Position numbers and translations under genes: made by a program. DNA of 51,794 bases. It comes from a virus (Duplodnaviria > Caudoviricetes). Below, piece by piece: positions 25,626 to 47,762 of the stretch. Within the stretch, counting starts at the first letter, position 1. Every line of letters begins with the position of its first letter. The stretch spans positions 1 through 51,794 of IMG/VR virus record IMGVR_UViG_3300005573_000013; one strand, given 5' to 3'. Below the pieces are notes generated by a model. The model was not told the origin of the DNA. It ran no database searches and saw only the letters and a program-made list of their open reading frames with translations.

Positions 25626-25733
25626 TCTCGGGTGTAACAATGGGGATTCGGTGAGGGATTTTTTTGAAAAGAATATAACATGAGATTGGTGGTTCATGAC
25701 AAGGCAAATGGCATAGCGGAATTGAGAAATGAT

Positions 25734-25762
25734 TTGACAAAGACAAAAAAGTATGATAATGT
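25734..25762 (+). promoter_or_regulatory. Probable sigma70 promoter of the second glycosylation operon
   Basis: TTGACA-17-TAATGT with extended TG; A-rich spacer like the other promoters. Confidence 0.5.
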
Positions 25763-25829
25763 AAGATTAAATTAAAATGAACTATTAAAATGATTCTCAA
25801 TGTCAATTTAGACAAGAGGACTAACTTCC

Positions 25830-29454: not shown

Positions 29455-29744
29455 ATTTGTTTAGAAGATTGATGGTTTGGTGGAAGCTTAGGGAACTTCA
29501 GGCCACCGACGACATTCAAAAGTTGATTAAGAAGGGGCTGGAAAGAGTTAAGAAAGAAGAGACGGAGGCTTGTGAACATAAGCGATTGCGGAAGGTCATT
29601 CCCGAAGATATATGGTATCGTTGCACCAAATGCCAGAGGATTTTCATGATACCGCTTGAGATATCTTGGGAAAAGAAGAACTTGGGGATGCTCTTAAGTA
29701 AATTACAAGAAGAGTTAAAATTAAAAGATAAAGATGAAAGTTAA
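29451..29744 (+). CDS. Hypothetical zinc-ribbon protein
   Basis: CEH...CTKC; ATGA overlap. Confidence 0.55.
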   Translation: MNLFRRLMVWWKLRELQATDDIQKLIKKGLERVKKEETEACEHKRLRKVIPEDIWYRCTKCQRIFMIPLEISWEKKNLGMLLSKLQEELKLKDKDES

Positions 29745-30006
29745 TATTATACATCGAGAAAGTGATGAATTATTTCCTGATATGAATATTATTGTGTTAG
29801 ATGTCAAATTTGAGAATGAAAGATTACGTAGCCAAATTGTTGTAACAAGGGATGTATTCGTTAATAAAAATCATTCGGTGTTAGGTGAGCTGAGAAGGAG
29901 ACTGGTAGAGTCAATTTGTCCTCCAATAAAACAGGAAATTGAAAAGCAAATAACTGAGTCAATGTTCCATCCGTTACACGAGGCGTTAGAAAGGATTAAA
30001 AAATGA
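29734..30006 (+). CDS. Hypothetical protein
   Basis: Overlaps both neighbours in the operon. Confidence 0.55.
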   Translation: MKVNIIHRESDELFPDMNIIVLDVKFENERLRSQIVVTRDVFVNKNHSVLGELRRRLVESICPPIKQEIEKQITESMFHPLHEALERIKK

Positions 30007-30890
30007 AAAAATTTAATTGCGGAATTTATGGCTTTGGTTTTGTCGGCAAGGCAATAACTCAGGGGTTGTCCTTAACTCACAATCTTAAGATTTATGATAT
30101 CAAGGAAAAAGTGGACTCATTTGAGGACACTGTTGATAATAGCGAATTCATCTTCATTTGCCTGCCAACCCCGATGACTGATGTTGAGGGTGGCAGGATA
30201 GACCTTTCGATAATTGATGGAGAAATCGATAAGATAGCCACACATCTGAATTATAAGTCAAACAAGATTATCATTATCAAAAGTACAATCATTCCCGGCA
30301 CTACAAGAAGATATCAGGATAAATATCCCGAGTTGAATTTCATTTTCAACCCGGAATTCCTGACTGAGCGGAATGCCCGCCTGGATTTCATCAATACGGC
30401 GAGGATTGTCCTGGGGGGTAAAGGAAAGGATGACCCAAACCTCCGAAGAGTAGAGGAAATGTATCGGGCAAGATTTCTTCATACGCCAATTTTTAAGACC
30501 AATTACGAGACGGCGGAGTTTGTCAAGTATCTTTGCAACAACTTTTTTGCCAACAAGGTGATGTACTTTAATGAGCAGAGACTGGTGGCAGAGAAGTTCA
30601 ATGAACACTGCGACTTGATAAGCGAAAGTGGTGGTAAGATTCATTGGCAGGAGGCGGTTAGGATGCTTTTGGCTGATGGAAGAATTGGCAATTCGCATTA
30701 CGAAGTCCCGGGTCATGATGGACAGCTTGGGTTTGGTGGCAGTTGTTTTCCAAAAGACCTTTGTGCCTATCGGAACTGGGCAAAGGATGTTGGAGCCGAG
30801 ACGCCTATTTTGGATGAGGATTGGGAATATAATAAGAAGATAAGGGAAGATTGGGACTGGGGCAAAATGGAAAGGGCGGTGAGGCGATGA
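30003..30890 (+). CDS. UDP-glucose/GDP-mannose dehydrogenase family protein (short form)
   Basis: GFGFVG, ICLPTP, KSTIIPGT, FNPEFL, catalytic GFGGSCFPKD. Confidence 0.9.
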   Translation: MKKFNCGIYGFGFVGKAITQGLSLTHNLKIYDIKEKVDSFEDTVDNSEFIFICLPTPMTDVEGGRIDLSIIDGEIDKIATHLNYKSNKIIIIKSTIIPGTTRRYQDKYPELNFIFNPEFLTERNARLDFINTARIVLGGKGKDDPNLRRVEEMYRARFLHTPIFKTNYETAEFVKYLCNNFFANKVMYFNEQRLVAEKFNEHCDLISESGGKIHWQEAVRMLLADGRIGNSHYEVPGHDGQLGFGGSCFPKDLCAYRNWAKDVGAETPILDEDWEYNKKIREDWDWGKMERAVRR

Positions 30891-31870
30891 GAAGATTACT
30901 CTTAACCGGAGGGATGGGTTTTATTGGAAGCCATTTGGTGGAAGGTGTCTTAAAAAATACCGATTGGGAAATTATCATTCTGGACAGGCTGGACACTTCC
31001 GGCAATCCCAACCGTTTAACTGATATGGAAATCTGGAATAAGGAAAAGCATCGAGTCAAGTTCATCTGGTGGGACTTGAAGTCGGAATTGAATGACTTTG
31101 TAAAATCAGAAATTGGAGAAGTTGGTTACATTTGGCATGTTGCTGCCTCCAGCCATGTGGATCGCTCCATTGAAAATCCGATGATGTTTGTAATGGATAA
31201 TGTCGTGGGGACTTGTAATATCCTGAATTTTGCCCGAACCATCAAAAACTTGAAATTATTCGTCAATTTTTCCACCGACGAGGTATTCGGTCCCGTTAGG
31301 GAAGGATTAAGCAATGAATACGACCATCACCACCCCAAGAACCCTTATGCGGCCACCAAATCCGCCCAAGAGGCATTAGGTGAATCCTTTGAGAATTGCT
31401 ATAAATTGCCCCTCATCACAACCCATACGATGAATGTGATAGGCGAAAGGCAACATCCCGAAAAGTTCATTCCGTCAACCATTAGGAAAATCCTGAATGG
31501 TGAGACGGTTATAATTCACGCCAACCCCGAAAAGACAAGGGCGGCGTCAAGGTTTTACATTCACGCTCGGAATGTCTGTGATGCCCTGTTATTCCTAACC
31601 GAAAAAGGATTTAATGGGTATGATGAGTTTAATATCGTTGGCGAACAGGAGATAGATGCCTTGAGTTTAGCCCAGAAGATAGCCAAGATAATTGGGATGG
31701 AATTGAAATACGAGATGGTCGATTTTCATTCCAGTCGTCCTGGACATGACCTACGCTACGCCCTTGACGGAAGCAAAATGGCAAAGTTGGGATGGAAGCC
31801 GCCAAAGACTTTTGATGAGTCGCTTGAGAGAACCGTCAAATGGTATCTTAGACATAAGGAGTGGTTATGA
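30887..31870 (+). CDS. rmlB: dTDP-glucose 4,6-dehydratase (RmlB-like)
   Basis: GGMGFIGS, AASSHVDRSI, STDEVFG, YAATK, QHPEKFIP, RPGHDLRYA. Confidence 0.9.
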   Translation: MRRLLLTGGMGFIGSHLVEGVLKNTDWEIIILDRLDTSGNPNRLTDMEIWNKEKHRVKFIWWDLKSELNDFVKSEIGEVGYIWHVAASSHVDRSIENPMMFVMDNVVGTCNILNFARTIKNLKLFVNFSTDEVFGPVREGLSNEYDHHHPKNPYAATKSAQEALGESFENCYKLPLITTHTMNVIGERQHPEKFIPSTIRKILNGETVIIHANPEKTRAASRFYIHARNVCDALLFLTEKGFNGYDEFNIVGEQEIDALSLAQKIAKIIGMELKYEMVDFHSSRPGHDLRYALDGSKMAKLGWKPPKTFDESLERTVKWYLRHKEWL

Positions 31871-32715
31871 ATGGCGGGATCATACTTTTCGAAAAGATTC
31901 ATGGTCAGAAGGACATTGGCTCGTCCCGAATCAGGGGGCATTGGCTGGTCAAGTATTGGCCGGAGCTTGAGGTATACAAATACGGCAAGAAATATGACTT
32001 TCTAATCTTTCAGAAGGCTTACCTGCTTGAGTTGGCTGAAAAGTTTGATGGAATAAAGATAGTGGATATCTGCGATCCGGACTGGGTTGAGTTGCAACCG
32101 ATAAGGGAAATGATTGGTTTCTGTGATGCCGTTACCTGTCCGACCGAGCCGTTGGCGGAGGTCTTCAGGAACCTAACCGACAAGCCGGTTGTTGTAATTT
32201 CCGACCGGATGGATTTGGAACATTACAGAGAGAAGAAACAACACCGGGGCAGGGCGAGGGAGGTCGTCTGGCATGGGTATGCCCATAACTCGTATGCCTT
32301 GAAGAAGACCGTTAGGACATTATTGAGGTTGAATTTGAAACTTTCAATAATCTCGAATGAGTACGTTTCCGTCGCCGGTGAAGAGGGATATGAGGGCAGG
32401 AGGTTGGAGGAGCGGTGGACGAAGTGGGAGTTAAGTACATTTAACAAGGAATTCATTAAGTCAGATATCTTCCTGAATCCGGTCGGCTGGAGACCTAATG
32501 ACAGATTCAAGAGCAACAACCGTGAGTTGACAGCTTGGGCTCTTGGGATGCCGGTGGCAAGGACGGCGGAGGATTTGGAGAGATTAATGGACCCAGTCGA
32601 AAGGCAGAAGGAGGCTGACCGTAATTTAAGAGAAGTGAGGGAGAAGTATGACGTCCGTCAAAGTGTTGGGGAATTTAAGCGGCTAATTGAGGAGTTGAAG
32701 AATGGTAGGCGGTGA
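31867..32715 (+). CDS. Divergent GT-B-like glycosyltransferase
   Basis: SSRIR, IFQK, VDICD, VWHG, KSNNR..AWALGMPV. Confidence 0.7.
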   Translation: MNGGIILFEKIHGQKDIGSSRIRGHWLVKYWPELEVYKYGKKYDFLIFQKAYLLELAEKFDGIKIVDICDPDWVELQPIREMIGFCDAVTCPTEPLAEVFRNLTDKPVVVISDRMDLEHYREKKQHRGRAREVVWHGYAHNSYALKKTVRTLLRLNLKLSIISNEYVSVAGEEGYEGRRLEERWTKWELSTFNKEFIKSDIFLNPVGWRPNDRFKSNNRELTAWALGMPVARTAEDLERLMDPVERQKEADRNLREVREKYDVRQSVGEFKRLIEELKNGRR

Positions 32716-32950
32716 ACTATATGGTGGCAATTTTACGACTACGACGACATCGGAATATGCCGTGGGACCATTGACGGCTTATCCCACCATTTCAGACCAA
32801 AGGTTTGGTTGTCAGTTCTGCGGGAAGACCGAAAAAATCCATCTAATTATGGATAATTCGGCTATCATCGGGATGCTCTGCGAGGAGTGTCTGAAGGATT
32901 TTGTGGAGTGTTTCAAGCAGTTTAAGATGGCCAAGCAAATTAAGAAATAA
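32702..32950 (+). CDS. Hypothetical zinc-finger protein
   Basis: CQFC...CEEC; GAGGAG SD. Confidence 0.55.
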   Translation: MVGGELYGGNFTTTTTSEYAVGPLTAYPTISDQRFGCQFCGKTEKIHLIMDNSAIIGMLCEECLKDFVECFKQFKMAKQIKK

Positions 32951-32967
32951 TAATAGAAAGGAGTATC

Positions 32968-33108
32968 ATGCCAAAACCAAATCCCAATGAATCCAAGGAG
33001 GACTTCATTAAAAGATGTATGGAGCAACTGGTCGGTGAGGAAGGTCGACCGCAAGACCAGGCATACGCGATGTGTCAGTCGTTTTGGGAAGAGCGTGAGA
33101 GGGAATAA
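32968..33108 (+). CDS. 46-aa protein MPKPNPNESKEDFIKRCM...QAYAMCQSFW (not in ORF track)
   Basis: AAAGGAG SD; resembles a short motif seen attached to phage head proteins. Confidence 0.7.
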   Translation: MPKPNPNESKEDFIKRCMEQLVGEEGRPQDQAYAMCQSFWEERERE

Positions 33109-33124
33109 TTAGAAAGGAATAGGA

Positions 33125-33730
33125 ATGGAAATCGTTAATGTTAAAATTAGAGACTTGAAGTTCGCCGAATACAATCCCCGGGAGATAACTGAACACGACT
33201 ACGAAGCACTGAAAAACGCCATTAAGGAGTTCGGGATCGTCGACCCGATAATCGTGAACAAGAAGGAAAACCAGATTATCGGCGGTCATATGCGGGTCAG
33301 GGCGGCGCAGGAACTTGGGATGGAGGAGGTTCCGGTTTACTATATTGATTTGCCGGAAAACAGGGCGAAAATCCTGAACCTTGCCCTCAATAGGATTCAG
33401 GGAAGGTGGAACAGGGAAAAATTAGAAAAGATGATCTATGACTTATCACAAGCAGAGGTAAACCTTCCGCTTACCGGATTTGAGGATTGGGAACTTGAGT
33501 TTTATAATCCCGGACCGATAGATGATAGTAAAAAAGAATGGATTGGGATGCCGGCATTTGAACCGATTGACGATTCCCTTAAAATAATAATTCATTTTGA
33601 GAATGAAGCTAATAGGGATGAATTCATACAAAAATATGCTTTTCGGATAGCTGAAAAGGGAAAAAGAACATGGTCGACGTGGTATCCGTTTAAGGAAAAG
33701 GTAGATGAATCATCAGTTAAATATGAGTAA
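33125..33730 (+). CDS. ParB/Srx N-terminal domain protein
   Basis: AEYNPR, FGIVDPIIVN, IIGGHMR, LNRIQGRW; C-terminal EWIGMPAF motif. Confidence 0.88.
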   Translation: MEIVNVKIRDLKFAEYNPREITEHDYEALKNAIKEFGIVDPIIVNKKENQIIGGHMRVRAAQELGMEEVPVYYIDLPENRAKILNLALNRIQGRWNREKLEKMIYDLSQAEVNLPLTGFEDWELEFYNPGPIDDSKKEWIGMPAFEPIDDSLKIIIHFENEANRDEFIQKYAFRIAEKGKRTWSTWYPFKEKVDESSVKYE

Positions 33731-34610
33731 ATTTAAGCCAAAATATCCGGTATATATTATTTCTAAGGGAAGATACGATTGTTGCCTGACGGCAGATATT
33801 TTCATTAATGATGGAGTTGATTTTAAGTTAGTCGTTGAACCACAGGAACAAGAATTATACCGTAGTAGATATGGAAAAAAGGTAAAGGTTTTACCATTTT
33901 CCAACCTTGGTAAAGGTGGAACACCTGCAAGAAATTGGTGTTGGGAAGATTCCGTAAAGGATGGGTTTAAACGTCATTGGATATTTGACGATAATATACG
34001 CAAGTTCAGGAGGATGTATAAGGGACACAGGATTCCGTGTAATGCCAATGTGGCGATGAGGGTTATAGAGGAATTTACGGATAGGTATGAGAATATTGGA
34101 ATTTCTGGCTTTAATTATAGCATGTTTACGCCACCAAGGACAAAGGTTCCATATAGATTGAATTGCCACGTTTATTCGGCGATGCTTATCAATAATGAGA
34201 TTCCATGGAGGTGGAGGCTTAAATATAATGAGGATACCGACCCTTGTCTCCAGGTTGTTACTCATGGCATGTGTACGGTTCAGTTTACAAGTTTCACTAT
34301 TGATAAGCAAAGAACGATGACGATGAAGGGCGGTAATGCGGAAATTTATAAGGGAAAAGGAAGGTTGATAATGGCAAGATTATTGGAAAAAATTTGGCCA
34401 GAACATGTCAAGGTGGTCTGGAAATTCGGCAGGCCATAGCATTCTATCAATTGGTTAAAATTCAAAAATCGGCTTATAAGGAAAAAGGACATAGATTTCA
34501 ATAATTTACCCAAGGTAGATGACTTTGGGCTTAAGTTGAGGAAAGTCGCCGATGAGATAAAGTCGGACGAGTTAAGGAAGATTTATGACGAGAGCATTAC
34601 GAACAATTAA
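33723..34610 (+). pseudogene. GT-A glycosyltransferase of the TET/JBP-associated (DNA-base) type, interrupted by an in-frame TAG at 34437-34439
   Basis: YIISKGR, ARNW, HWIFDDNI, YNEDTD, MKGGN motifs; frame stays open 56 more codons to TAA 34610. Confidence 0.65.
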
Positions 34611-34993
34611 AGGATTCCATTTATTGTAAAGAATTCTTTAAGGTCAATTTTCGGTAAGTCTTTTTCCCAAATCTTGATGACCCTATATCCCATTAGCTTT
34701 AATTTTAATCGTTTCTTAAGTTCGTTATATTTTCCCAAGAGGAGTTTTCTTTTCCACCACCAGTTAACTTTACGTAAGGTAGAAAGCTTCCTCAAGTGCC
34801 AAAAGTCGCCATCAACGAATAAGGCAGTCTTATCGATAAGAAAATCCGGAGTACCAGGTAAACCATGTGCCTGATAAGTAAATCGCACCTTCAGTCGTAT
34901 GAGCGCTTCCTTGACGAAAAGTTCCGGCTTTGTATCTTTACCCCTAATTTTAGACATTATGTGACTTCGCTGTTCTTTGGTGAATTTATCCAT
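34607..34993 (-). CDS. vsr: Very short patch repair (Vsr) endonuclease
   Basis: MDKFTKEQRSHIMSKIRGKDTKPE, LPGTPDF, FVDGDFWH, IWE. Confidence 0.9.
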   Translation of the reverse strand: MDKFTKEQRSHIMSKIRGKDTKPELFVKEALIRLKVRFTYQAHGLPGTPDFLIDKTALFVDGDFWHLRKLSTLRKVNWWWKRKLLLGKYNELKKRLKLKLMGYRVIKIWEKDLPKIDLKEFFTINGIL

Positions 34994-35002
34994 ATTAAGT
35001 AT

Positions 35003-35031
35003 ATTATATCACTAAAAGAAAAAATTGTAAA
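35003..35031 (-). promoter_or_regulatory. Leftward sigma70 promoter for vsr (near-leaderless mRNA)
   Basis: Minus-strand TTTACA-17-TATAAT with extended TG; -10 ends 9 nt before the ATG. Confidence 0.65.
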
Positions 35032-35054
35032 CAGTTAAAAAGATTGGAAAACGT

Positions 35055-35486
35055 ATGCAACAGAAATACAATAAGGAAGCCGTAAGGGCGTATTTAGAGG
35101 ACGATAAGGACAAGTTAAATAAGATGGTTTTGGAAGCGGAGCCAATCGTGATCTTATTGTTAAGGATTCAAGAGGGAAATTTCTATGAGGATGCCTATGC
35201 CCTTGCGGGAATTCCCGAGTCGACTTTTTATGAATGGAAAAAGAATCATCCGGAGTTTTTGGAGGCAATAAAAAAGGCCGATATCATCTGCAAGTCCTTA
35301 CACATCAAAAACATCAAAAAGCATTCCGATAAGCAGTGGCAGGCATCGGCTTGGTATCTCGAAAGGAGATACCCAAACGAATTCAGGGAACGCAAGGAAT
35401 TCGAGCACAAGGGTAAACTAACTTTGGAGGAGTTTTTAAGTGGAGACGACTTCGATAGAAATGAGACGGGAGCTGATAAGGAATGA
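35055..35486 (+). CDS. terS: Terminase small subunit
   Basis: AGIPESTFYEW HTH, WQASAWYLERRYP; directly upstream of terL. Confidence 0.8.
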   Translation: MQQKYNKEAVRAYLEDDKDKLNKMVLEAEPIVILLLRIQEGNFYEDAYALAGIPESTFYEWKKNHPEFLEAIKKADIICKSLHIKNIKKHSDKQWQASAWYLERRYPNEFRERKEFEHKGKLTLEEFLSGDDFDRNETGADKE

Positions 35487-36843
35487 CGAGAGGCTGTACA
35501 TTGAAAGGGTGCTTGGCAACCGAATATGGTCGAGGCAGGCTGAAATCGTCAAGGCGGTCCAAGAAAACAAGCGGGTGGCGGTCAAAAGTTGCCATAGTTC
35601 TGGAAAGTCTTTCATAGCGGCAAGAATAGCCTTGAAGTTCTTACATTCTTATCCCCATTCGACCGTATTGACGACCGCCCCGACCTGGCGACAGGTCAAT
35701 GATATCCTCTGGAAGGAGATAAACACCGCCTACAACAACGCCAGATACAAACTTCCCGGAACAATGCTTGATGTCCGCTACAATATAGACGAGGACTGGT
35801 TTGGTGTGGGGCTTTCGACGACGGAGTCCGACAAGTTTCAGGGCTATCACTCCAACTACATTCTGGTGATTGTCGACGAGGCAAGCGGCGTTGAGAAGAA
35901 GATTTACGATGCCATTGAGGGAGTGACTTCAACCGGCTTTACGAGAGTCCTTTTAATTGGTAATCCCAACGACCCGACCGGATACTTCGCCGATGCTTTC
36001 AAGTCGCCAATTTGGACCAAGATTACGATAAGCTGCTTTGACACACCGAACTTTAACAGCATCCCGAATCTAGAGGCGTTAAAGAATTCCACCGAGGAAC
36101 AGAGAAGAGAGGCGACCATTTATCCCTACCTGATAACACCCCAGTGGGTTTGGGAAAGGATGCAGGAATGGGGCGAGGATAGTCCGCTCTTTCAGGCAAG
36201 ATGCTTGGGGGAGTTTCCGACCGAATCAACGGATACTTTAATAGCATTGAAATATGCCGAAGCCGCCTTGAGGAATGAAAATCCAAAGGACGGCGATTGG
36301 TTCATTGGTCTTGATGTCGCTCGAATGGGCGACGATAGGACGGCCTTTGTTATTCGTAAGGGAGATGATGTAAAGAGGGTAGAGTGGTTTCAAAAGGAGG
36401 ACACGATGCAGACCGTCGGCAGGGCGATAAACTTTTTACAGGAATATCCGGAAGCCAAGATGAGGATTGATGCCATCGGCGTCGGTGCCGGGGTGGTTGA
36501 CAGGCTAAAGGAATCAGAGTACTCCGACAGGGTTGAGGGGGTGAGTGTCGCCGAGTCCACCGCTTCGGAAGGGGAAATGAAGTATGTCAACATCCGGGCA
36601 AAACTTTATTGGAGATTAAGACAAAAGTTTATGAATGGCGAAATCAGGCTGATTGACAGGGGCACGATAGTGAGCGACTTGACCAACCTGAAGTATCGGT
36701 TCAGGTCAAGCGATGGGGCGGTTCAGATAGAGAGCAAGGAGGAATTAAAAAAACGGGGGTTGAGGAGTCCTGACCTTGCCGACGCCTTGGCACTATCGTA
36801 TGCCGAGGATATCAATCCCCAACCGGATATCTATTTCGTCTAA
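35440..36843 (+). CDS. terL: Terminase large subunit
   Basis: Walker A SCHSSGKS, Walker B VIVDEA, IGNP, GLDVA, DAIGVG, SPDLADA. Confidence 0.95.
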   Translation: METTSIEMRRELIRNDERLYIERVLGNRIWSRQAEIVKAVQENKRVAVKSCHSSGKSFIAARIALKFLHSYPHSTVLTTAPTWRQVNDILWKEINTAYNNARYKLPGTMLDVRYNIDEDWFGVGLSTTESDKFQGYHSNYILVIVDEASGVEKKIYDAIEGVTSTGFTRVLLIGNPNDPTGYFADAFKSPIWTKITISCFDTPNFNSIPNLEALKNSTEEQRREATIYPYLITPQWVWERMQEWGEDSPLFQARCLGEFPTESTDTLIALKYAEAALRNENPKDGDWFIGLDVARMGDDRTAFVIRKGDDVKRVEWFQKEDTMQTVGRAINFLQEYPEAKMRIDAIGVGAGVVDRLKESEYSDRVEGVSVAESTASEGEMKYVNIRAKLYWRLRQKFMNGEIRLIDRGTIVSDLTNLKYRFRSSDGAVQIESKEELKKRGLRSPDLADALALSYAEDINPQPDIYFV

Positions 36844-36847
36844 AGAC

Positions 36848-36875
36848 TTGACAAGACCATTTTTTATGATATAAT
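36848..36875 (+). promoter_or_regulatory. sigma70 promoter of the com-like/head-tail operon
   Basis: TTGACA-16-TATAAT with extended TG. Confidence 0.75.
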
Positions 36876-36886
36876 AGGAGTGAATA

Positions 36887-37051
36887 ATGAACGAATTCCG
36901 CTGTAAGCGATGTGGACATTTGTTGGCCAAAGAAGAAATCATCTTTGGGCAGGTTGAGATAAAGTGTTATGCCTGCAATGAGTTGAATACGATTACGTAT
37001 GATTACAACATTCAACAGACATACACAGCAGAGTTAATTCCAGCAAATTAA
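36887..37051 (+). CDS. Mu Com-like zinc-finger regulator, 54 aa (not in ORF track)
   Basis: MNEFRCKRCGHLLAKEEIIFGQVEIKCYACNELN matches the Com pattern RCxxCxxLL...EIKCxxCxxxN; AGGAG upstream. Confidence 0.8.
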   Translation: MNEFRCKRCGHLLAKEEIIFGQVEIKCYACNELNTITYDYNIQQTYTAELIPAN

Positions 37052-37060
37052 ATAGTTTTA

Positions 37061-37118
37061 GAAGGCTCTCTTGAAGCCCTATTTGAGGACATTAAGTCCC
37101 TGAATAGGGCTTTTTTGT
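37061..37118 (+). terminator. Intrinsic terminator with overlapping alternative hairpin (attenuator 1)
   Basis: GCCCTATT/AATAGGGC plus TTTTTT; the 5' arm overlaps GGCT-CTCTTGA-AGCC. Confidence 0.7.
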
Positions 37119-37148
37119 ATAAAAAAAGGACTAATAACAGGAGTAACA

Positions 37149-38558
37149 ATGACTGAAAAGAAAGAAGAACAAAAGGTGGACTTTAAGACAATTCCCCATA
37201 CCACCGCCTTTGTCGAGGAGATAGAGGAAGATGGGGTAAAGCAGAAGCTGTTTGTGGCCTCCGATGAGGTCGTGGATAGGCAGGGCGAGGTTCTATCTAC
37301 TGATGGTTGGAAACTGGACAATTTTAAGAAAAATCCGGTAATTCTATGGGCTCACAACCAACTTGAACCGGCGATCGGGATAGCCGAGAAAATTGGATTC
37401 AAGACGGTTCAAGGGGTTAAGAAACTGGTCTTTGAGCCGAAGTTTCATCGAAAGTCGGACATATCAAGATTAATCGCTGACTTGGTTGATGAGGGATGGA
37501 TTAAGGCGTCATCGGTTGGTTTCTTGCCGATAGAGCGGGATGACAAGGTTTATAAGAAACAGGAACTTTTGGAAATCTCATTCGTTAATGTTCCGGCTAA
37601 CCAGAATGCTCTTGGATTGGCGTTGAGCAAGGGATATTCACCTGAAGTCATAAAACAGATTATGCCGGATGTTAAGGATGAGGACATTTGCCCGCCACAG
37701 AAGGATGTCGAAGACATCGAGTTTAAGGGAGCAATTCCCTACACCAAGTATCCATTGGCAGATGAGAATGTAGAGTGGGACGCCGGAGCGGAGGTTAGGA
37801 ATGCTGACGTGGACGACCTGAAAAAGATGTGTGCTTGGTATGATTCGGCGAACCCAGACCTTAAGGGTTCATACAAGCTGCCGCATCACCAGTTGAGCGG
37901 TTATAAGACCGTTTGGCGAGGCGTGTCGGCGGCAATGGCAGCTCTGATGGGAGCGAGGGGTGGAGTGCAAATTCCGGACTCGGATCGGATGGGTGTCTAC
38001 AATCACCTTAAGAGACATTATGCCGATTTTGACAAGGAACCGCCAGAATTGAGGACAGCTGACCAGATAATCGAAAAGTATGTTGAGAACAGGTCTGCCG
38101 ACGATTCTGTCAGGGACTTGATTAAGTTGGTCAATACTTATATCGAGGAAGGCAAGGTTGCCGAACTTGGTAAGTCGGTAGAGGAACTGAAGATTGCCAT
38201 AGAGAAGTTTATTGATGATTCAAACAAAGCTAATGCCGAGCAAAAGGCAATCCAAGAGTCAGAAAGAGAAAGCCTTGAGAAAAGAATTAAGGGAATTGAG
38301 CTGAATATCCAGGGATTGTCCGAGGGAATCAAGCCGGGAGACGAGGGCTTGGAAGCAAGGATTGCCGGCATTGAGAGAAATTTTGAAAATCTTACGAGGG
38401 ACATAAAGTCCTTCTTAGATATGCCTGTTAAGGGCACGAATGGTCGAGAACTTAAGTCGGTCGAGGGAGAAGACAAGAAGTCAATGACCCGACGCCACTT
38501 AATCTACAAGGCACTCAATAAAAGTGTTGAGGCCTTAAATCTTTTAGAAAAGGAATAG
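37149..38558 (+). CDS. HK97-type prohead protease fused to an extra domain and a coiled-coil (scaffold-like) tail
   Basis: VDRQGE, NPVILWAH, SSVGF, LLEISFVNVPAN. Confidence 0.9.
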   Translation: MTEKKEEQKVDFKTIPHTTAFVEEIEEDGVKQKLFVASDEVVDRQGEVLSTDGWKLDNFKKNPVILWAHNQLEPAIGIAEKIGFKTVQGVKKLVFEPKFHRKSDISRLIADLVDEGWIKASSVGFLPIERDDKVYKKQELLEISFVNVPANQNALGLALSKGYSPEVIKQIMPDVKDEDICPPQKDVEDIEFKGAIPYTKYPLADENVEWDAGAEVRNADVDDLKKMCAWYDSANPDLKGSYKLPHHQLSGYKTVWRGVSAAMAALMGARGGVQIPDSDRMGVYNHLKRHYADFDKEPPELRTADQIIEKYVENRSADDSVRDLIKLVNTYIEEGKVAELGKSVEELKIAIEKFIDDSNKANAEQKAIQESERESLEKRIKGIELNIQGLSEGIKPGDEGLEARIAGIERNFENLTRDIKSFLDMPVKGTNGRELKSVEGEDKKSMTRRHLIYKALNKSVEALNLLEKE

Positions 38559-38559
38559 G

Positions 38560-39669
38560 ATGGACGAAGACAAAGACAGTTTAGATGAGAAGGTTGAGGA
38601 AGAGGCTGATAAGGAAGCCGAGAAGTTCATGGCCAATATCCAGAAGTTGGTAGAAGCTGAGGTTGAGAAGCTTGTTGGGAAAAAGGAAGAGAAACTTGGA
38701 GATGAGAAAGAGATTACCAAAGAGTCCGTCAAAGAGATGGATGCTCAGACCAGAAGCACGGAGTTTATTCGGGCATTATTGACGAACCAGAAGGAAAAAC
38801 TCCAAGTGCTTTCTGAGGGGACGAATGCCCTTGGTGGATATCTGGTCCCGGCCGTTCTCTACAATCAGATTGTAGAGGAACAGCGGGATGTTGCGGTCAT
38901 CCGTCCACGGGCTACCGTCATTGACCCCTGTCCGAAACAGCTGAACATTGACCAGTTGGCCACCAGACCAAAAGTCTATTGGAGAAGCGAAGCGGCCGTC
39001 AAGTCAACTTCGACGCTTCAATTCAACCAAATCTCCCTTACACCTTATTCATTGGCCGTGATTGTGGTTCTTACTAAAGAGTTGGTCGCCGATGCCCAGA
39101 TTCCGCCTTCAATCATCAATTACGTGATTAACCAGATTGCTACCGCTATTGCCGAAGAAGAGGATAAAGTCTTCATGGTTGGAACCGGATCGGGACAACC
39201 GACGGGGATTGATACTTACTCCTCAACCGTTCACCGCACCGTTACTACCGCTGCTAATGTGCTGACCTATGACTGCTTGGTTGACGCCCTTTACAAGCTT
39301 GGGTCTAAATATCGCAGGAATGCCGTTTGGTTGATGAATTCGAATACCCTCAGGAAGGTGATGCTACTCAAGGACTCGCAGAATAGGCCGATTTTCGTCG
39401 CTGACCCGACGGGTGATTTACCCGGAACCGTTTTGGGACGCCCAGTTCTTGAGCAGAATAACTTGGCAGAATCACACATCTGGCTCATTGACCTTAAGGG
39501 TTACTGGATCGGTGTTCGCGAGGGTATCAACGTGATGCAGTCTGAAGAAGCTTCCGTCGGAGGTTACAGCACATTTGAGCGTAATGAAGTTGCCATCAGG
39601 GTTGAAGAGAGGGTGGATGGTGAGTTAGCCGACCTTGACTGTGCAGTTTGCATTACTGGCACAAACTAA
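38560..39669 (+). CDS. HK97-fold major capsid protein
   Basis: GGYLVP, GTGSGQPTGI, AVWLMN, LKDSQNRP, VLGRPV, RVEERVDG. Confidence 0.95.
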   Translation: MDEDKDSLDEKVEEEADKEAEKFMANIQKLVEAEVEKLVGKKEEKLGDEKEITKESVKEMDAQTRSTEFIRALLTNQKEKLQVLSEGTNALGGYLVPAVLYNQIVEEQRDVAVIRPRATVIDPCPKQLNIDQLATRPKVYWRSEAAVKSTSTLQFNQISLTPYSLAVIVVLTKELVADAQIPPSIINYVINQIATAIAEEEDKVFMVGTGSGQPTGIDTYSSTVHRTVTTAANVLTYDCLVDALYKLGSKYRRNAVWLMNSNTLRKVMLLKDSQNRPIFVADPTGDLPGTVLGRPVLEQNNLAESHIWLIDLKGYWIGVREGINVMQSEEASVGGYSTFERNEVAIRVEERVDGELADLDCAVCITGTN

Positions 39670-39672
39670 CCT

Positions 39673-39758
39673 GATGTCTTGAATACCCTTTGGGAATTGG
39701 TCAAGTTCCGAGGTAATAGCCGGATATTAAGCCAATCCTCGAAGGGATTGAGGACATC
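39673..39758 (+). promoter_or_regulatory. Long stem-loop sequestering the RBS of the connector gene
   Basis: 39673-39700 pairs with 39732-39758, which ends 1 nt before ATG 39759. Confidence 0.6.
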
Positions 39759-40346
39759 ATGTCATTAGTGAGTTATGCCTTAATCTCTTTGGCTGATTTG
39801 AAGGAAGCTTTGAGTATCACCGGAACATCCGATGACGCTCTTTTGACGAACATCATAAATCGGGCGACAGACATAATCGAAAGATACTGTAATGGGCGAA
39901 GGTTTGCCTCAACGACCTACACCAATGAGGAGTATGACGGCACCGGAACTAATTATATCAACTTGAAACATTACCCGATAACAAGCCTGACCGCCTATGA
40001 GAAGAATACTGGAAGCCTTGGTAATCCCAACTGGGAGGCACTTGAAAGCGATTACATTACTTATCTTGGGGATGAGGGACAGGTTTATTACGAACTCGGA
40101 CCGTTTGAGAGGGGTGTAAAAAATTATCGGTTCAGTTATGTCGCCGGCTACTCGACCATTCCCAATGACCTCCAGCAGGCCTGTATTACTTTATGCTCAT
40201 ACTTGAAGAATGTGACTAAAGGGACAGGATTAAGGTCAGAGTCATTGGGGGAATACTCATACACTAAAGAAGAAGATGTGAATGCTACCATTAAGAACTT
40301 GGGATTAGATGAGATACTTGACGTCTATAAGACGCCGGTTATATGA
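39759..40346 (+). CDS. Head-tail connector (gp6-like)
   Basis: SLADLKEAL..DDALL..IERYC..YVAGY..IPNDL..SESLGEYSY. Confidence 0.88.
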   Translation: MSLVSYALISLADLKEALSITGTSDDALLTNIINRATDIIERYCNGRRFASTTYTNEEYDGTGTNYINLKHYPITSLTAYEKNTGSLGNPNWEALESDYITYLGDEGQVYYELGPFERGVKNYRFSYVAGYSTIPNDLQQACITLCSYLKNVTKGTGLRSESLGEYSYTKEEDVNATIKNLGLDEILDVYKTPVI

Positions 40347-40355
40347 GGAGGCACT

Positions 40356-40670
40356 ATCCAATATTTCTTAGATAAGACAATTACCTTGCGTCGGCTGAGG
40401 CACCTTGATGAAAATAGGTCTGTGTTTTCAGCCACGGGAACGGCTGCGGGATACAAGGTTAGTTGGCAGGAGCCGAGTCCGGAAAAGATTGCTCTTTACG
40501 AGGGTGAAATTGGCAAAATGTTTTCGGTATTCGTTGACATATCCTGTCCAGTCCAATCGGGAGACCAAGTGGTCAGGGATTCGGTTCAGTATTCGGTGAG
40601 GGATGTCAAGACGCAGGACTTTGGCTCGATGCAGTATAAACGGCTCATAGTCGTGAAGCAGGACGTATGA
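40356..40670 (+). CDS. Head closure protein (start uncertain: ATC 40356 or TTG 40386)
   Basis: Synteny; VQSGDQV...YSVRDV pattern; SD GAGGAGG at 40345-40351. Confidence 0.7.
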   Translation: MQYFLDKTITLRRLRHLDENRSVFSATGTAAGYKVSWQEPSPEKIALYEGEIGKMFSVFVDISCPVQSGDQVVRDSVQYSVRDVKTQDFGSMQYKRLIVVKQDV

Positions 40671-41116
40671 CGATAAAAGTGGAAATACCCAACTTGCGAA
40701 AGGCACTGGACGCCTTGGCTCAATCTCCCGGAATTATCGGAACGAGACTGAATAACGCCATTAAGAAGTCAATCTACGAGATAGAAAAGGAGGCAAAGCC
40801 GAGAACGCCAGTCGTCACCGGAAGGTTGAGGAGCAGTTATCAAACGGAGTTCAGACCGCTGTATGGAAGTTTAAGTCCGATGGTGAATTACGCGATATAC
40901 GTTCACGAAGGAACGAAGCCGCACATTATAAGCGTCAAGAGGGCGAAGGTTCTGACGGACGGCAAGATATTCTTCGGCAAGGTTGTCCACCATCCCGGCA
41001 CGAAAGCCCAGCCGTTCTTGAGGGAAGGGATAGAGGCATCAATGGATAGTATAAGGAATTATTTTGAGCAGGAAATAAATGCTGGACTTGAGGAGATAGC
41101 AGGGAAAGGAAGTTAA
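40667..41116 (+). CDS. HK97 gp10-like neck protein
   Basis: TPVVTGRLRSS, YAIYVHEGT, HPGTKAQPFL. Confidence 0.9.
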   Translation: MTIKVEIPNLRKALDALAQSPGIIGTRLNNAIKKSIYEIEKEAKPRTPVVTGRLRSSYQTEFRPLYGSLSPMVNYAIYVHEGTKPHIISVKRAKVLTDGKIFFGKVVHHPGTKAQPFLREGIEASMDSIRNYFEQEINAGLEEIAGKGS

Positions 41117-41569
41117 ATGGGTTCAACAGACATCAACAATCTTAAGTCGGTGATAATGAACCGTATTTCGGAAAAGGTTACGACCGTTCAGGATGTTAGT
41201 GATTATGAGAAGACGGGATTTAAGGGCTTTCCGGCAGTGACGGTGGTTTGCTCGGGAAACGAGAACGATTACTGGTCAACAGCGGAAAACCAGCGGCAAT
41301 TCACTTTCATCGTCAGGGTTTATGAGCAGTTGGAGCAGGTTCCGGCGGTTGACGCTGTTTCCGATAATGCGAAACAAAGGGCTGAGGCGATAATTGGTCG
41401 AGTCGTCTCGGAAATCATAGATACATTCGATGAGTTTTTCACATTTAATAATGAGGCTGACTACTGCCGAGCTGTTCCCTCAAGTTGGGGATACGTCAAG
41501 TTAGGAGAAGGCTGGTGTCGAACAGCCGAGATAAAGCTCCAAGTAGTCAAGTCATATACCGTTCAATAA
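41117..41569 (+). CDS. Tail terminator/completion protein
   Basis: Synteny; FPAVTV motif. Confidence 0.7.
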   Translation: MGSTDINNLKSVIMNRISEKVTTVQDVSDYEKTGFKGFPAVTVVCSGNENDYWSTAENQRQFTFIVRVYEQLEQVPAVDAVSDNAKQRAEAIIGRVVSEIIDTFDEFFTFNNEADYCRAVPSSWGYVKLGEGWCRTAEIKLQVVKSYTVQ

Positions 41570-41589
41570 TTTTTTAGAAAGGAGTTACA

Positions 41590-42561
41590 TTGGCTAAGTT
41601 TATTGGTCGCAGAGCGGCCATCGGAATCGGAAAGGAATCTTCAAGGGGAACGGCAGTTGCCCCGACTTATTGGATACCGGCGGCATCCATTGGGTTTGCC
41701 GATAAGGTCGAAAGGGTAGTCCAAGAAGCAGGGTTTGGTCAGATCGCCGACGCCGATTCGTCTTACACCGTCAAACTATTCGGCGAGGGAGAGGTTGAGG
41801 CTGACATCCACGAAAACTGGATTGGTCTTGTCTTGGCGGCATTGGCAGGGGCGGCACCGTCGTCTTCTGGTGGTCCCACTAACTATGTCCATACTTACAC
41901 ACTTCAAAACATCAACAATAAGTTGAGCCTGTCTATTGCTTATCATGACCCGAATCAGAATGTCATTTTTCCATTTGGGATGATTGACTCTCTCAAGATT
42001 GAAGTCAAGCCTGCCTCAATCGCAAGAGCAACAGTTGCCTTTCGTTCGCAGAAGTCGAAGGATTGGGCAACTTTGACTCCGTCTTATACGAACTTGGGGA
42101 ACAAGTATCTCTCAAGGCATTGTGAGTTCAGGTTGGCGGACACCGGAGCTGCATATTCGTCCAACATTGATGCCGCTTCGAAAATCACCCTTGTCTCGCT
42201 GACGCTGACAGTCAACAACAACCTTGCTGATTGGGATACGCTGGGGACAGTGACCCCTTCCGATATTGTTAATCGGCAATTCAGCGTTGATGGGGAGGCG
42301 GAACTGGCCTTCGAGGATTTGACCTACCGCAATTATGTTGTTGATGGGACATACAAGGCCTGCGGTATTAAGTTCAACTATGGCACGAACAACTATCTGG
42401 ATATCAAGATGCCAAAGGTTGACATCCGTAAATGGGAGCCGTCGCTTGACTTGGATGAAGTTGCTACCCAGAAGTTCACATTCAAGGCACTTTATGATAC
42501 TGATAACGCCGTCAATCAAATCGGTGTTTTGACGCTGGCAAATCAAGTGGCAAGTTATTAA
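41590..42561 (+). CDS. Tail tube protein
   Basis: GIGKESSRGTAVAP, YVHTYTL; TTG start after AAAGGAG. Confidence 0.88.
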   Translation: MAKFIGRRAAIGIGKESSRGTAVAPTYWIPAASIGFADKVERVVQEAGFGQIADADSSYTVKLFGEGEVEADIHENWIGLVLAALAGAAPSSSGGPTNYVHTYTLQNINNKLSLSIAYHDPNQNVIFPFGMIDSLKIEVKPASIARATVAFRSQKSKDWATLTPSYTNLGNKYLSRHCEFRLADTGAAYSSNIDAASKITLVSLTLTVNNNLADWDTLGTVTPSDIVNRQFSVDGEAELAFEDLTYRNYVVDGTYKACGIKFNYGTNNYLDIKMPKVDIRKWEPSLDLDEVATQKFTFKALYDTDNAVNQIGVLTLANQVASY

Positions 42562-42568
42562 ATAATAA

Positions 42569-42612
42569 CGGGGGTGGTTGACTTACCTCCGCCACCCCCG
42601 GAAGAGAGGTAA
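42569..42612 (+). promoter_or_regulatory. Putative H-type pseudoknot covering the chaperone SD
   Basis: CGGGGGTGG/CCACCCCCG stem; loop TTACCTC pairs with GAGGTAA 42606-12. Confidence 0.5.
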
Positions 42613-42615
42613 ATT

Positions 42616-42927
42616 ATGGCAAAATTTGTTGTCAAAAAGAGGGTGGACTTGGGATTTTTGGGAGACGACTGGAAGGAATGCTACCTGGAGTTTAACACGC
42701 CGTCCTACGGCGAGGTAAAGGAATTTATTCCCTTGGCCAATGAGAAAGACCAGACGAGGGCCGTTCAGGCGGGACTGGAACTACTGCAGAAACTTTATCT
42801 CGGCGGTAAGGGGTTTGACGGCTCAGCTGTGGTTGATGTTAAGAAGGAAGAGCTTGAAGAACTGCCGGTTGAAGTCCTTACCAAGTCATTCCAGGTAATT
42901 GTGGGAACTCCACCCCCAAACTTGTGA
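42616..42927 (+). CDS. Tail assembly chaperone (G)
   Basis: Between tail tube and tape measure; slippery site at the 3' end. Confidence 0.8.
   Translation: MAKFVVKKRVDLGFLGDDWKECYLEFNTPSYGEVKEFIPLANEKDQTRAVQAGLELLQKLYLGGKGFDGSAVVDVKKEELEELPVEVLTKSFQVIVGTPPPNL
42915..42921 (+). other. -1 programmed frameshift heptamer C CCA AAC
   Basis: X XXY YYZ in frame; the -1 frame is the 42924-43142 ORF. Confidence 0.75.
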
Positions 42928-43142
42928 GGGCGTTGGAAGACGCCATTTTAAGGGATTCGGATACTGTCCCGATGGAGATAATCGAGTTTTTTTATAGGAA
43001 AGAATTTAACCTATCTTATAAGGAACTTTTAGAAGAGCCAATGGAAAAGTTTCAAATAAATTTAGAAATTATGCGACTTAGAAATTTGAGAGAAAAAATG
43101 GAAATGCAAGAAATTGAAAAAAAATCAAGGAGAAATAAATAG
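42924..43142 (+). CDS. Tail assembly chaperone T segment (GT fusion)
   Basis: -1 frame relative to G; no SD; precedes the tape measure. Confidence 0.75.
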   Translation: MRALEDAILRDSDTVPMEIIEFFYRKEFNLSYKELLEEPMEKFQINLEIMRLRNLREKMEMQEIEKKSRRNK

Positions 43143-47434: not shown

Positions 47435-47443
47435 AGGAGAATT

Positions 47444-47761: not shown

Positions 47762-47762
47762 A

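Follow-up and report, generated by a model that had tools for sequence, protein, structure and literature searches.

We propose that a 54-residue Com-like zinc ribbon encoded by an uncultivated tailed phage binds a nascent RNA hairpin, blocks the base of an overlapping intrinsic terminator, and thereby lets RNA polymerase read on into the head and tail genes. Judged from sequence, we consider this reading probable; its inferred parts are the binding of protein to RNA, the sign of the effect, and the timing. The DNA analyzed here (the window, 51,794 nucleotides) is a complete genome of 51.8 kb and holds two such leaders. Leader 1 comprises promoter P1, com, box 1, and terminator 1, followed by the protease, capsid, and tail genes, and leader 2 comprises P2, box 2, and terminator 2, followed by the portal gene.

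In the proposed mechanism, the Com-like protein would bind the Com box as it emerges from RNA polymerase. The 3′ arm of the box is also the bottom of the 5′ arm of the terminator, so that a protein-held box would exclude the full terminator. The terminator stem would then end 3–6 nt short of the U tract, and the polymerase would read through. P1 and P2 should fire at once, giving short transcripts only, until Com protein builds up. The module would act as a late-gene timer set by protein dosage over time.

The com gene and its leader

The features of the first site are as follows.

36848–36875, + strand: promoter P1, TTGACA-16-TATAAT with a TG extended -10, in the 43-nt spacer between TerL and com
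36876–36880, + strand: AGGAG ribosome-binding site of com, assigned from sequence
36887–37051, + strand: com-like gene, 54-aa CxxC-N17-CxxC zinc ribbon, PF10122
37062–37079, + strand: Com box 1, proposed protein-binding antiterminator hairpin (AA, 4-bp hairpin at 37064–37078, C)
37073–37116, + strand: intrinsic terminator 1 (13-bp and 4-bp stems, U6)
37149–38558, + strand: prohead protease/scaffold fusion (PF04586 at 18.6 bits, below the cut-off of 21; PHROGs)
38560–39669, + strand: HK97-type major capsid protein (PF05065 at 186.7 bits; PHROGs)

The com product is, by its sequence, a Com-family zinc ribbon, for which zinc binding is predicted. The unannotated 54-aa CxxC..CxxC reading frame pointed out in the initial annotation (36887–37051) is present, with its cysteines at C6/C9 and C27/C30. 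It matches PF10122 (Zn_ribbon_Com) at 24.8 bits (cut-off 22.9, E 1.5e-5), and in a six-frame search it was the only PF10122 match of the genome (23.5 bits). Eight other Pfam matches at E ≤ 1, seven of them to zinc-ribbon families, all lie below their cut-offs. The PHROG matches are 6417, "translational regulator" (5.2e-5), and phrog_13819, gpCom (3.4e-4). The Com similarity proposed initially thus holds above the curated cut-off, and it extends to the relatives: all 26 sequences of alignment A2 match PF10122 (best E 9.1e-10), with C6, C9, C27, and C30 invariant among the 26. The AF2 model has a mean pLDDT of 86 and four short strands; Foldseek of this model against the PDB returned generic zinc ribbons only (E ≥ 0.33), and a PDB sequence search gave nothing informative (best Tim15, E 0.0047). 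A profile search yielded 589 representatives at E ≤ 1e-3. A word-indexed protein search, too insensitive for a 54-aa query, found 2 proteins only. Among cultured phages, tblastn of the Com-like protein gave no match at E ≤ 0.01 and the DNA of 35440–38558 gave none; the prohead protease has two distant matches there, in Bacillus phage Flasso and Komagataeibacter phage phiKM1.

The promoter placed initially at 36848–75 is a perfect sigma-70-type consensus (12/12 in the promoter scan). It is the sole 12/12 match within 30000–49000, and six such sites occur on the + strand of the whole window. P1 and P2 belong to the host sigma-70 consensus type, as do the early promoters of the phage. The + strand has no promoter of at least 11/12 from 36875 to the end of the window, and the 11-kb head-tail operon behind terminator 1, in which head-tail adaptor, tail, and tape-measure genes follow the capsid gene, therefore needs read-through. 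No Q-like family was found among the 40 ORFs of at least 100 aa compared with PHROGs, com being the one shorter ORF covered. The claim that the phage has no recognizable Q, sigma factor, or late activator stands for these 40 ORFs and for 5 compared with Pfam.

Box 1 begins 12 nt past the com stop codon and consists of GGCU (37064–67), the loop CUCUUGA (37068–74), and AGCC (37075–78), just where the AGAA-GGCT-CTCTTGA-AGCC hairpin had been described. Terminator 1, given earlier as 37074–37116, has its stem at 37073–37113 and a U tract ending at 37116. It folds with an MFE of −23.5 kcal/mol (z = −3.8), a stability reached by 0 of 200 shuffles. All four nucleotides of the 3′ arm of box 1 pair inside terminator 1, at the base of its 5′ arm; the two hairpins are mutually exclusive, as had been suggested. 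Box 1 is weak alone (−3.0 kcal/mol) and missing from the MFE fold. Forcing it to fold costs 9.1 kcal/mol, and six unpaired nucleotides then separate what is left of the stem from the U tract. Over both sites, the protein would have to supply about 7–9 kcal/mol, unless the box has a kinetic advantage. A search of Rfam returned no family at gathering scores for the whole window, nor any at E ≤ 1 for 36840–37150.

The AGGAG of com sits between the −10 box and the expected P1 start at ~36882, which was derived from the usual 7-nt distance to the −10 box. A com ribosome-binding site upstream of the expected P1 start is a point against the antitermination model. In seven relatives (L052, L007, L012, L013, L010, L034, and the cut L001), a near-consensus promoter lies 7–15 nt upstream of the com start codon, and in L006 the −10 box overlaps the first ATG.

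A second leader before the portal gene

A second promoter–hairpin–terminator leader, which contains no ORF, precedes the displaced portal gene.

48244–48272, + strand: promoter P2, TTGACA-17-TAAGAT with TG, 10/12
48285–48302, + strand: Com box 2, candidate (GA, hairpin at 48287–48301, C)
48299–48329, + strand: intrinsic terminator 2 (10-bp stem, U5)
48343–50832, + strand: portal protein fused to a minor-head-protein domain (phrog_2662, phrog_115)

Box 2 is composed of GGCA (48287–90), the loop CUGUGAA (48291–97), and UGCC (48298–301), and the closing pair is A–U where box 1 has U–A. Terminator 2 has GCC (48299–301) in common with the box, that is, three of the four arm nucleotides. Its MFE is −19.9 kcal/mol, and forcing box 2 to fold costs 6.6 kcal/mol. 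The portal ORF matches phrog_2662 (portal, 6.7e-112) and phrog_115 (minor head protein, 9.6e-28). Box 2 lacks the penultimate G of the strict box pattern, and site 2 was missed by the covariance model described below. A complete 53-kb relative (G005) has the same two-site layout, with an identical 16-mer common to both sites; another relative (G008) has the portal gene without such a leader.

The ORF-less second site bears on the possibility that box and terminator compete in cis only, through a kinetic folding trap or a ribosome at the com stop codon, with Com regulating something else, such as modification genes. The 12 nt between com stop and box in the window, and 7–15 nt in several relatives, are within reach of a terminating ribosome, and the phage has many modification genes, including a methyltransferase and glycosyltransferases. 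We nevertheless regard this explanation as quite improbable. The stop-to-box distance varies, reaching 50 nt in L007 and 153 nt in L034, and there is no translated leader ORF at site 2 or in the loci whose promoter lies inside the com 3′ end. In addition, the box agrees with the target of Mu Com and, over unrelated loci, accompanies com genes; com and the terminator co-occur, and no further box lies beside any modification gene in the window.

Conservation of the box and its coupling to terminators

The initial annotation named conservation of the overlapping hairpin in related phages as a check on its proposal, and the hairpin proved to be conserved, with compensatory changes in the stem. Loci were found with an 8-sequence alignment, the 26-sequence one being too diverse. 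A metagenome scan added four loci, of which only L052 was new and usable, and one Variovorax locus from the genome-contig scan (L056) was discarded as a false positive whose translation is not a zinc ribbon.

Terminators were called by a single-hairpin rule. The overlapping hairpin was defined by four Watson–Crick base pairs, a loop of 5–8 nt, and a 3′ arm beginning 0–3 nt into the terminator; these rules and the six-feature consensus described below were fixed after the first loci were known. A strong terminator lies within 250 nt at 23 distinct com loci, and 11 of these carry such a hairpin, against 0.96 predicted by shuffles; 0 of 200,000 simulations reached 11, although the loci are related to each other and the counts are not fully independent.

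The stems vary in a compensatory manner. The 20 boxes collected, several of them chosen by eye, have 10 distinct stems, and in the seven boxes of equal length, each of the four pairs varies on both sides. These pairs have a covariation score of 0.95; shuffles give 0.49 (0/500 reach the observed value) and slid partners no more than 0.12. Formal pair counting is confined to these seven boxes, since MAFFT of 17 boxes misaligned the arms, whose loop lengths differ. A covariance model made from the boxes of other loci only has box 1 as its top match in the window (18.5 bits, E 0.15); this model (R1, 28 positions) is too short for significance and was replaced by explicit pattern scans.

Presence of com also goes with presence of the other elements. 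Among 65 distinct loci anchored on the protease gene, a terminator occurs in 16/17 with com and 6/48 without (P 1.7e-9), a promoter of at least 11/12 in 15/17 and 5/48, respectively (P 8e-9), and the strict box in 10/17 and 1/48 (P 1e-6). Six of the 16 protease loci with com and terminator do not have the strict overlapping box and show, by eye, 3-bp or G–U variants. In L006, the box ends 7 nt upstream of the terminator. The com–box–terminator unit also stands before portal genes of SU10/P22 type (L015, L025) and before a protease I gene of Mu type (L043).

These data can be set against the idea of a chance arrangement, in which a moron-like promoter–gene–terminator cassette inserted at the terminase–head boundary happens to carry a fortuitous 4-bp complement. 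In the window alone, shuffling the 24 nt upstream produces a box-1-like hairpin in 2.4% of cases, so the significance of box 1 rests on the second site and the relatives; a simple terminator scan of the window likewise shows no enrichment (12 found, 17.1 expected from shuffles). The compensatory changes, the ORF-less second site, the relative with two sites, and the co-occurrence statistics make such a coincidence scarcely credible.

The geometry of the overlap concerns the sign of the effect. In 17 overlapping boxes, 65 of the 66 common nucleotides pair in the terminator MFE structure, and in 17/17 the folded box takes away the terminator base. A protein that stabilizes the terminator or, as autoregulation, protects the 3′ end of the short com transcript, with late genes expressed through processive antitermination loaded at early promoters, appears highly improbable on this evidence. 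It would fit L052 and L068, where a second copy of the box forms the terminator apex and a bound protein would not oppose termination, and the six consensus promoters of the early region could load an unrecognized processive factor. However, no N-, Q-, or put-like element was recognized in the Rfam scans or among the ORFs compared with PHROGs, and such a scheme leaves P2, with only a 50-nt leader behind it, without purpose.

The Com box and known regulatory systems

The consensus Com box reads RA, 4-bp stem, loop C..GA, 4-bp stem, C. Across the 20 boxes, position −1 is A in 19 and position −2 a purine in all 20; the loop begins with C in 15 and ends with A in 19, and position +1 is C in 17. 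The native Mu Com target, given as the 19-mer GAAUGCCUGCGAGCAUCCC in PMC6483171, shows every feature of this consensus and agrees with the Mu target quoted in the initial annotation. Box 1 has the six sequence features of this 19-mer. In the same article, Mu Com is described as binding a short hairpin beside a translation-inhibition structure, with the loop motif CC(N)2-3GAG.

The strict six-feature box was sought from com to 200 nt beyond it at each distinct locus. It was found in 8 of 25 com loci outside the derivation of the consensus, where 0.14 were expected (P 3e-12). The 42 distinct com ORFs together give 16 matches in 15.9 kb, compared with 3 in 449 kb of background, an enrichment of about 150-fold. 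Two other readings of the element were rejected. A role of the CUCCUU of some boxes as an anti-Shine–Dalgarno sequence is contradicted by its absence from box 2 and many relatives. A DNA-binding site formed by the inverted repeat does not fit the variable spacing of 5–8 nt or the G–U pairs (L024), and it is also ruled out because the stems covary and the known ligand of the Com family is RNA.

The protein could also bind the box and act post-transcriptionally, on translation or stability, with the terminators serving as constitutive, partly leaky attenuators. The sole characterized member of the family is a translational activator, according to PMC6483171. Some com loci precede methyltransferase genes: in L023, a D12 methyltransferase gene has its ribosome-binding site sequestered in a hairpin with which the box overlaps, and in L023 and L020 the box abuts a hairpin masking the start codon or ribosome-binding site of such a DNA-modification gene. 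L023 thereby keeps the geometry of the terminator loci but has another kind of inhibitory hairpin, which forms a bridge to Mu. The apex boxes of L052 and L068 are compatible with binding at a 3′ end. For the present genome, we nonetheless consider this mode of action unlikely. The window sites do not have the Mu com–mom layout; the competitor is a U-tailed terminator, and the genes are those for protease/capsid and portal. At both sites, the downstream ribosome-binding site lies outside the competing hairpin (ACAGGAG at ~37138–44 on the protease side; AAAGGAG at ~48332–38, ahead of the TTG start of the portal gene). U5–U6 follows the competing hairpin in 16 of 17 com-positive protease loci. 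A consensus promoter and a strong terminator with no promoter for 11 kb would be an odd design if expression depended on leakage.

Taking antitermination as the preferred reading, the two kinds of loci suggest, with confidence evenly balanced, that Com and its 15-nt box are a portable two-part RNA switch that can be coupled to either kind of inhibitory hairpin, the terminator form being a master late-gene antiterminator. If so, coupling to a hairpin masking a ribosome-binding site would put DNA-modification genes under translational control, as happens in Mu, and coupling to an intrinsic terminator would give transcriptional control. The switch would then serve unrelated lineages of head modules (HK97-type protease/capsid, SU10/P22-type portal, and Mu-type protease I), and it would be a counterpart of lambda Q made from a 54-aa zinc ribbon, with sites that co-evolve with their own protein in each genome. 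For uncultivated tailed phages with no recognizable Q, sigma factor, or activator, the module would offer a concrete, testable answer to late timing. Antitermination would be a second mechanism for the Com family and a new use of known proteins; a full-text literature search with limited coverage of subscription journals found no description of a Com-family antiterminator. The same protein–hairpin pair at translation-type and transcription-type loci would represent a case of regulatory rewiring, and the small parts would suit a compact orthogonal read-through switch in synthetic biology.

The likeness to Mu com–mom includes a small four-Cys zinc ribbon whose gene lies directly upstream of its target (here putative), a GA plus 4-bp hairpin with loop C..GA and a following C, and a bound hairpin that competes with an adjacent inhibitory hairpin. 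The Mu target has a hexaloop and GA contacts. The inhibitory structure masks a start codon in Mu, whereas here it is a U-tailed intrinsic terminator, and the gene controlled encodes a DNA-modification enzyme there and would encode protease, capsid, tail, and portal proteins here. This phage also differs in that its genome has two putative target sites, both with a consensus promoter in front.

The arrangement resembles lambda Q at pR′–tR′ in its strong constitutive promoter, close terminator, and short abortive transcript, and in a small phage protein that would permit read-through into head and tail genes as a late timer. Q, according to 10.1101/651190 and PMC9388147, acts by binding DNA and by a processive modification of RNA polymerase at a pause close to the promoter. 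In contrast, a conserved RNA hairpin lies on each terminator here, with one site per operon, which implies local, non-processive action. Lambda N–boxB and HK022 put likewise use a nascent RNA hairpin near the promoter as the recognition element. They act processively via RNA polymerase and Nus factors and need no terminator overlap; no arginine-rich-motif protein or put-like RNA is seen here (no Rfam match).

In BglG/SacY/LicT–RAT and ANTAR (EutV, AmiR, NasR) systems, a protein stabilizes an antiterminator hairpin that overlaps the 5′ arm of a terminator. By analogy, we propose that the com–box–terminator system works like these leaders, yet is not a member of them. The com ORF has no CAT/PRD or ANTAR domain in Pfam, and the effector would be a phage-encoded 54-aa zinc ribbon with no apparent sensory input. 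The candidate antiterminator similarly overlaps the terminator 5′ arm, by 4/4 nt at site 1 and 3/4 at site 2. ANTAR targets consist of two tandem small hairpins, and two such hairpins in tandem are present in L008, L087, L116, L024, L011, and L019.

Two leader sites in one genome

The virus record is complete (51,794 bp, 43% G+C) and carries direct terminal repeats. Two sites combine a promoter, a Com box (a 4-bp hairpin whose 3' arm doubles as the base of a terminator) and a terminator.

Features of the terminase, head-tail and portal regions
35055-35486, + strand: small-terminase-like ORF
35440-36843, + strand: large terminase
43 nt between large terminase and com, + strand: spacer
36848-36875, + strand: promoter P1, TTGACA-16-TATAAT with TG extension, in the terminase-com spacer
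36887-37051, + strand: com, Com-like ORF of 54 aa
97 nt between com and the protease gene, + strand: spacer
37064-37078, + strand: box 1, GGCU-CUCUUGA-AGCC, after the com stop codon
37149-38558, + strand: prohead protease/scaffold fusion
38560-39669, + strand: HK97-type capsid gene
Downstream of the capsid gene, + strand: adaptor, tail, tape-measure and distal-tail genes
48244-48272, + strand: promoter P2, TTGACA-17-TAAGAT with TG
48287-48301, + strand: box 2, GGCA-CUGUGAA-UGCC, 14 nt past P2
48299-48329, + strand: terminator 2, 10-bp stem plus U5, overlapping box 2 by GCC
48343, + strand: TTG start of the portal gene, preceded by AAAGGAG
48343-50832, + strand: portal fused to a minor-head-protein (SPP1 gp7 / Mu F-like) domain (phrog_2662, 6.7e-112)

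The promoter, small hairpin, overlapping T-tailed terminator and downstream head genes described in the initial annotation are all present in the sequence. P1 is the sole 12/12 promoter match within 30000-49000. Terminator 1 has stems of 13 bp and 4 bp (37073-37113) ahead of a U6 tract; its MFE is -23.5 kcal/mol (z = -3.8), and equally good folds were obtained in 0/200 shuffles. The AGCC arm is common to box 1 and terminator 1. The box 1 hairpin is weak (-3.0 kcal/mol) and absent from the MFE fold; when it is enforced, 9.1 kcal/mol is lost and 6 nt separate what remains of the terminator stem from the U tract.

The portal gene is displaced, being located after the tail genes and not beside the terminase. 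The leader of site 2 contains no ORF, which sets this site apart from a promoter-gene-terminator cassette. Each box has purine-A immediately on its 5' side and C on its 3' side, and a compensatory change distinguishes the closing pairs (U-A in box 1, A-U in box 2). The five-feature box pattern matches both window strands 4 times, against 2.8 expected, and the only matches abutting terminators are the two on the + strand, box 1 and box 2.

The arrangement recurs in G005, a 53 kb relative estimated to be complete, whose portal gene is likewise about 10.7 kb downstream of the protease. There, a promoter, com, box and terminator precede the protease (locus L068), and a promoter, box and terminator precede the portal (L139). 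The identical 16-mer TTGAGGTCTTGAACCC is found at both sites, and its box, GGU-CUUGA-ACC, is unlike the window boxes. Sites are more alike within a genome than at equivalent positions across genomes, as would be expected if sites follow their own genome's protein. The relative G002 has a single site, and its elements run terminase, portal, com, then the terminator and the protease; in G008, no leader separates the portal from the ORF before it.

The Com-like protein and its putative target

The suggested Com similarity of 36887-37051 is borne out by a score of 24.8 bits against Pfam PF10122 (Zn_ribbon_Com), above the curated cut-off of 22.9. The ORF also matches the PHROGs 'translational regulator' and 'gpCom' and is the only PF10122-type gene in the genome. 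A word-indexed protein search returned few close relatives. Searching 1.84 billion representatives with a profile gave 589 matches at E <= 1e-3, of which 16 reached E <= 1e-10. Locus scans yielded 47 viral and 4 metagenome loci; a single bacterial-genome locus was dropped as a false match. The protein is absent from the cultured phages of the collection searched. A window-like protease and capsid lie downstream of com in L006, L007, L008/9, L010, L011, L012, L013/14, L018, L019, L024, L034/35 and L052, and nearly all loci of this kind have the window-type spacer design.

PMC6483171 gives the native Mu Com target as GAAUGCCUGCGAGCAUCCC, in which a 4-bp stem closes the loop CUGCGA, with GA on the 5' side and C on the 3' side. 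The target shape given in the initial annotation (GA, 4-bp stem, C..GA loop) agrees with this printed site. The same paper describes binding to a short hairpin adjoining a translation-inhibition structure, a loop motif CC(N)2-3GAG, and GA dinucleotides protected upon Com binding. All six features of the box consensus are present in the Mu site.

Conserved features among 20 boxes
Position -2: purine, 20/20
Position -1: A, 19/20
Loop, first: C, 15/20
Loop, penultimate: G, 14/20
Loop, last: A, 19/20
Position +1: C, 17/20

A strict six-feature scan of the 15.9 kb next to com genes found 16 boxes, at 15/42 distinct com ORFs, against a background of 3 boxes in 449 kb. Among com loci not used to derive the consensus, 8/25 have a box, with 0.14 expected (P 3e-12). 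The Com box is, on this sequence evidence, the predicted target of the Com family. Two of the loci outside the consensus set, L023 (D12 class) and L020 (N6_N4 class), precede DNA methyltransferase genes, the classical Com context in Mu-like prophages according to the abstract of PMC3299994. At L023 (2629-2662), the 3' arm of the box GAAC-CGAGA-GUUC lies within a hairpin sequestering AGGAG just before the D12 methyltransferase start codon. The window geometry recurs here, except that the partner hairpin masks a ribosome site instead of being a terminator; in this uncultivated phage the arrangement is Mu-like and translational. Boxes of the terminator type are also found ahead of portal genes of the SU10/P22 type (L015, L025), and one precedes a gene for a Mu-type protease I (L043).

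Overlap, covariation and co-occurrence

We defined the terminator objectively as the best of the single hairpins that adjoin a U-rich tract, and the box as four Watson-Crick pairs enclosing a 5-8-nt loop, with a 3' arm that begins 0-3 nt into the terminator. Of 23 distinct loci in which a strong terminator lies no more than 250 nt from com, 11 satisfy this rule. Shuffles of the 24 nt upstream give an expectation of 0.96, and 11 was reached in 0/200,000 simulations; setting the rule after the first examples were known inflates this contrast, but the margin is very large.

The 20 boxes have 10 distinct stems: GGCU/AGCC, GGCA/UGCC, AGCU/AGCU, GACU/AGUC, GAUC/GAUC, GGCG/CGCC, GCUU/AAGC, GGUU/AACC, AGCC/GGCU and GGCU/AGCU. 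In the 17 overlapping boxes, 65/66 shared nucleotides also pair with the terminator 3' arm. Accordingly, the shared segment covaries with two partners, and this is the signature of an antiterminator/terminator pair. Formal covariation was scored on the 7 boxes with 6-nt loops: every cell pairs, two-sided changes occur in 4/4 pairs, and the score is 0.95, compared with 0.49 for shuffles (0/500 reaching 0.95) and no more than 0.12 when partners are slid. The overlapping hairpin is therefore conserved in related phages with compensatory stem changes, as had been anticipated.

Several observations count against the proposed competition between box and terminator. The loci compared are related and do not amount to independent samples. 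A strict box is missing in 6/16 com-plus-terminator loci; by eye, five of these have 3-bp or G-U variants, or a box within the terminator 5' arm. In L006, 7 nt separate the box end from the terminator, and site 2 was missed by a short covariance model of the box. An extra box copy forms the apex of the terminator itself in L052 (1702-1729) and L068 (1250-1261), which could reflect cooperative binding or be evidence against a simple competition model.

A scan anchored on the protease instead of com covered 80 loci plus the window, giving 65 distinct upstream regions.

Elements upstream of the protease, with and without com
Terminator of -12 kcal/mol or better: com+ 16/17, com- 6/48 (Fisher P 1.7e-9)
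Promoter of at least 11/12: com+ 15/17, com- 5/48 (Fisher P 8e-9)
Strict overlapping box: com+ 10/17, com- 1/48 (Fisher P 1e-6)

Therefore, com, promoter and terminator move together as one module.

Promoter layouts and possible antitermination

Promoters of at least 10/12 are present in 16/19 loci examined and of at least 11/12 in 13/19 (background: 28 sites of at least 11/12 in 262 kb). In layout 1 (window-like, com after terminase), the promoter is 7-15 nt before the com start codon, as measured from the end of the -10 box in the window (36870-36889), L010, L013, L007, L012, L034 and L052. In L034/L035 the com-protease spacer is unusually long (231 nt), with about 150 nt extra between com and box. 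In layout 2 (L008, L011, L018, L019, L024, L043, L025), the promoter is inside the last com codons or just after them, 10-44 nt before the box, and promoter, short box leader and terminator form the same unit as window site 2. Two small hairpins are frequent here: the first, further upstream, has a loop of the form C..UAGA or C..UUGA and in many cases encloses the com stop codon, and the second has an A/U-rich loop and overlaps the terminator. Near-consensus promoters occupy the last com codons in L008 (2622-2650), L011 (1145-1173), L019 (2634-2662), L024 (2628-2656) and L018 (2649-2677). By eye, TTGACA...TATAAT falls on the DNA encoding the conserved C-terminal peptide DTFRP..Y[ND] (L011, L019, P0006), making this stretch dual-coding.

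From terminator 1 to the window end, no other + strand promoter of at least 11/12 was found; therefore, the head-tail operon would rely on read-through of terminator 1, and the portal gene on that of terminator 2. P1 belongs to the same sigma-70-type class as the early-region promoters and is therefore expected to fire as soon as infection begins. We consider it fairly probable that the Com-like protein permits this read-through. In the simplest model, the protein would accumulate first, translated from terminase-operon transcripts (AGGAG included) or from a short P1 transcript. Because the -10 box is so near the start codon, the com ribosome-binding site coincides with or precedes the expected transcription start, and transcripts from the com promoter would have almost no leader; this position was counted against the model. 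The protein would then bind the box as it emerges from the polymerase, ahead of the terminator 3' arm made about 35 nt later, so that the terminator loses the lowest 3-6 pairs of its stem. The energy that binding has to supply, 6.6-9.1 kcal/mol over the two window sites, is presumably affordable for a nanomolar RNA-binding protein.

The proposed switch resembles lambda pR'-tR'/Q in function, RAT or ANTAR leaders in mechanism and Mu Com in its parts. A full-text literature search returned no description of a Com-family or zinc-ribbon RNA-binding antiterminator, and no Rfam family was found at this locus. The protein family and the hairpin-competition principle are known; their combination as a late-gene antiterminator would be new.

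The replication/early region contains six consensus or near-consensus promoters (TTGACA-17/18-TATAAT; 10663-12366 and 16388-16416), five of them 12/12, just after a strong terminator (10498-10540); these are probably early promoters. A lone - strand endonuclease gene (phrog_13076, 34607-34993) with its own promoter (35031-35003, 11/12 plus TG) lies just before the terminase genes in a genome otherwise on the + strand. Tail-fibre-like matches were obtained for an open frame of 1,489 aa (2-4471) that runs off the record start, and another open frame (51330-51794) runs off its end; both may be affected by the cut point of the terminally repeated record. A large sugar-nucleotide/glycosyl-transfer gene block (17974-34439) comprises three nucleotide-sugar epimerases, one UDP-glucose dehydrogenase, several glycosyltransferases and a beta-glucosyl-HMC alpha-glucosyltransferase relative adjoining a ParB-like nuclease, which suggests DNA hypermodification or glycan synthesis.
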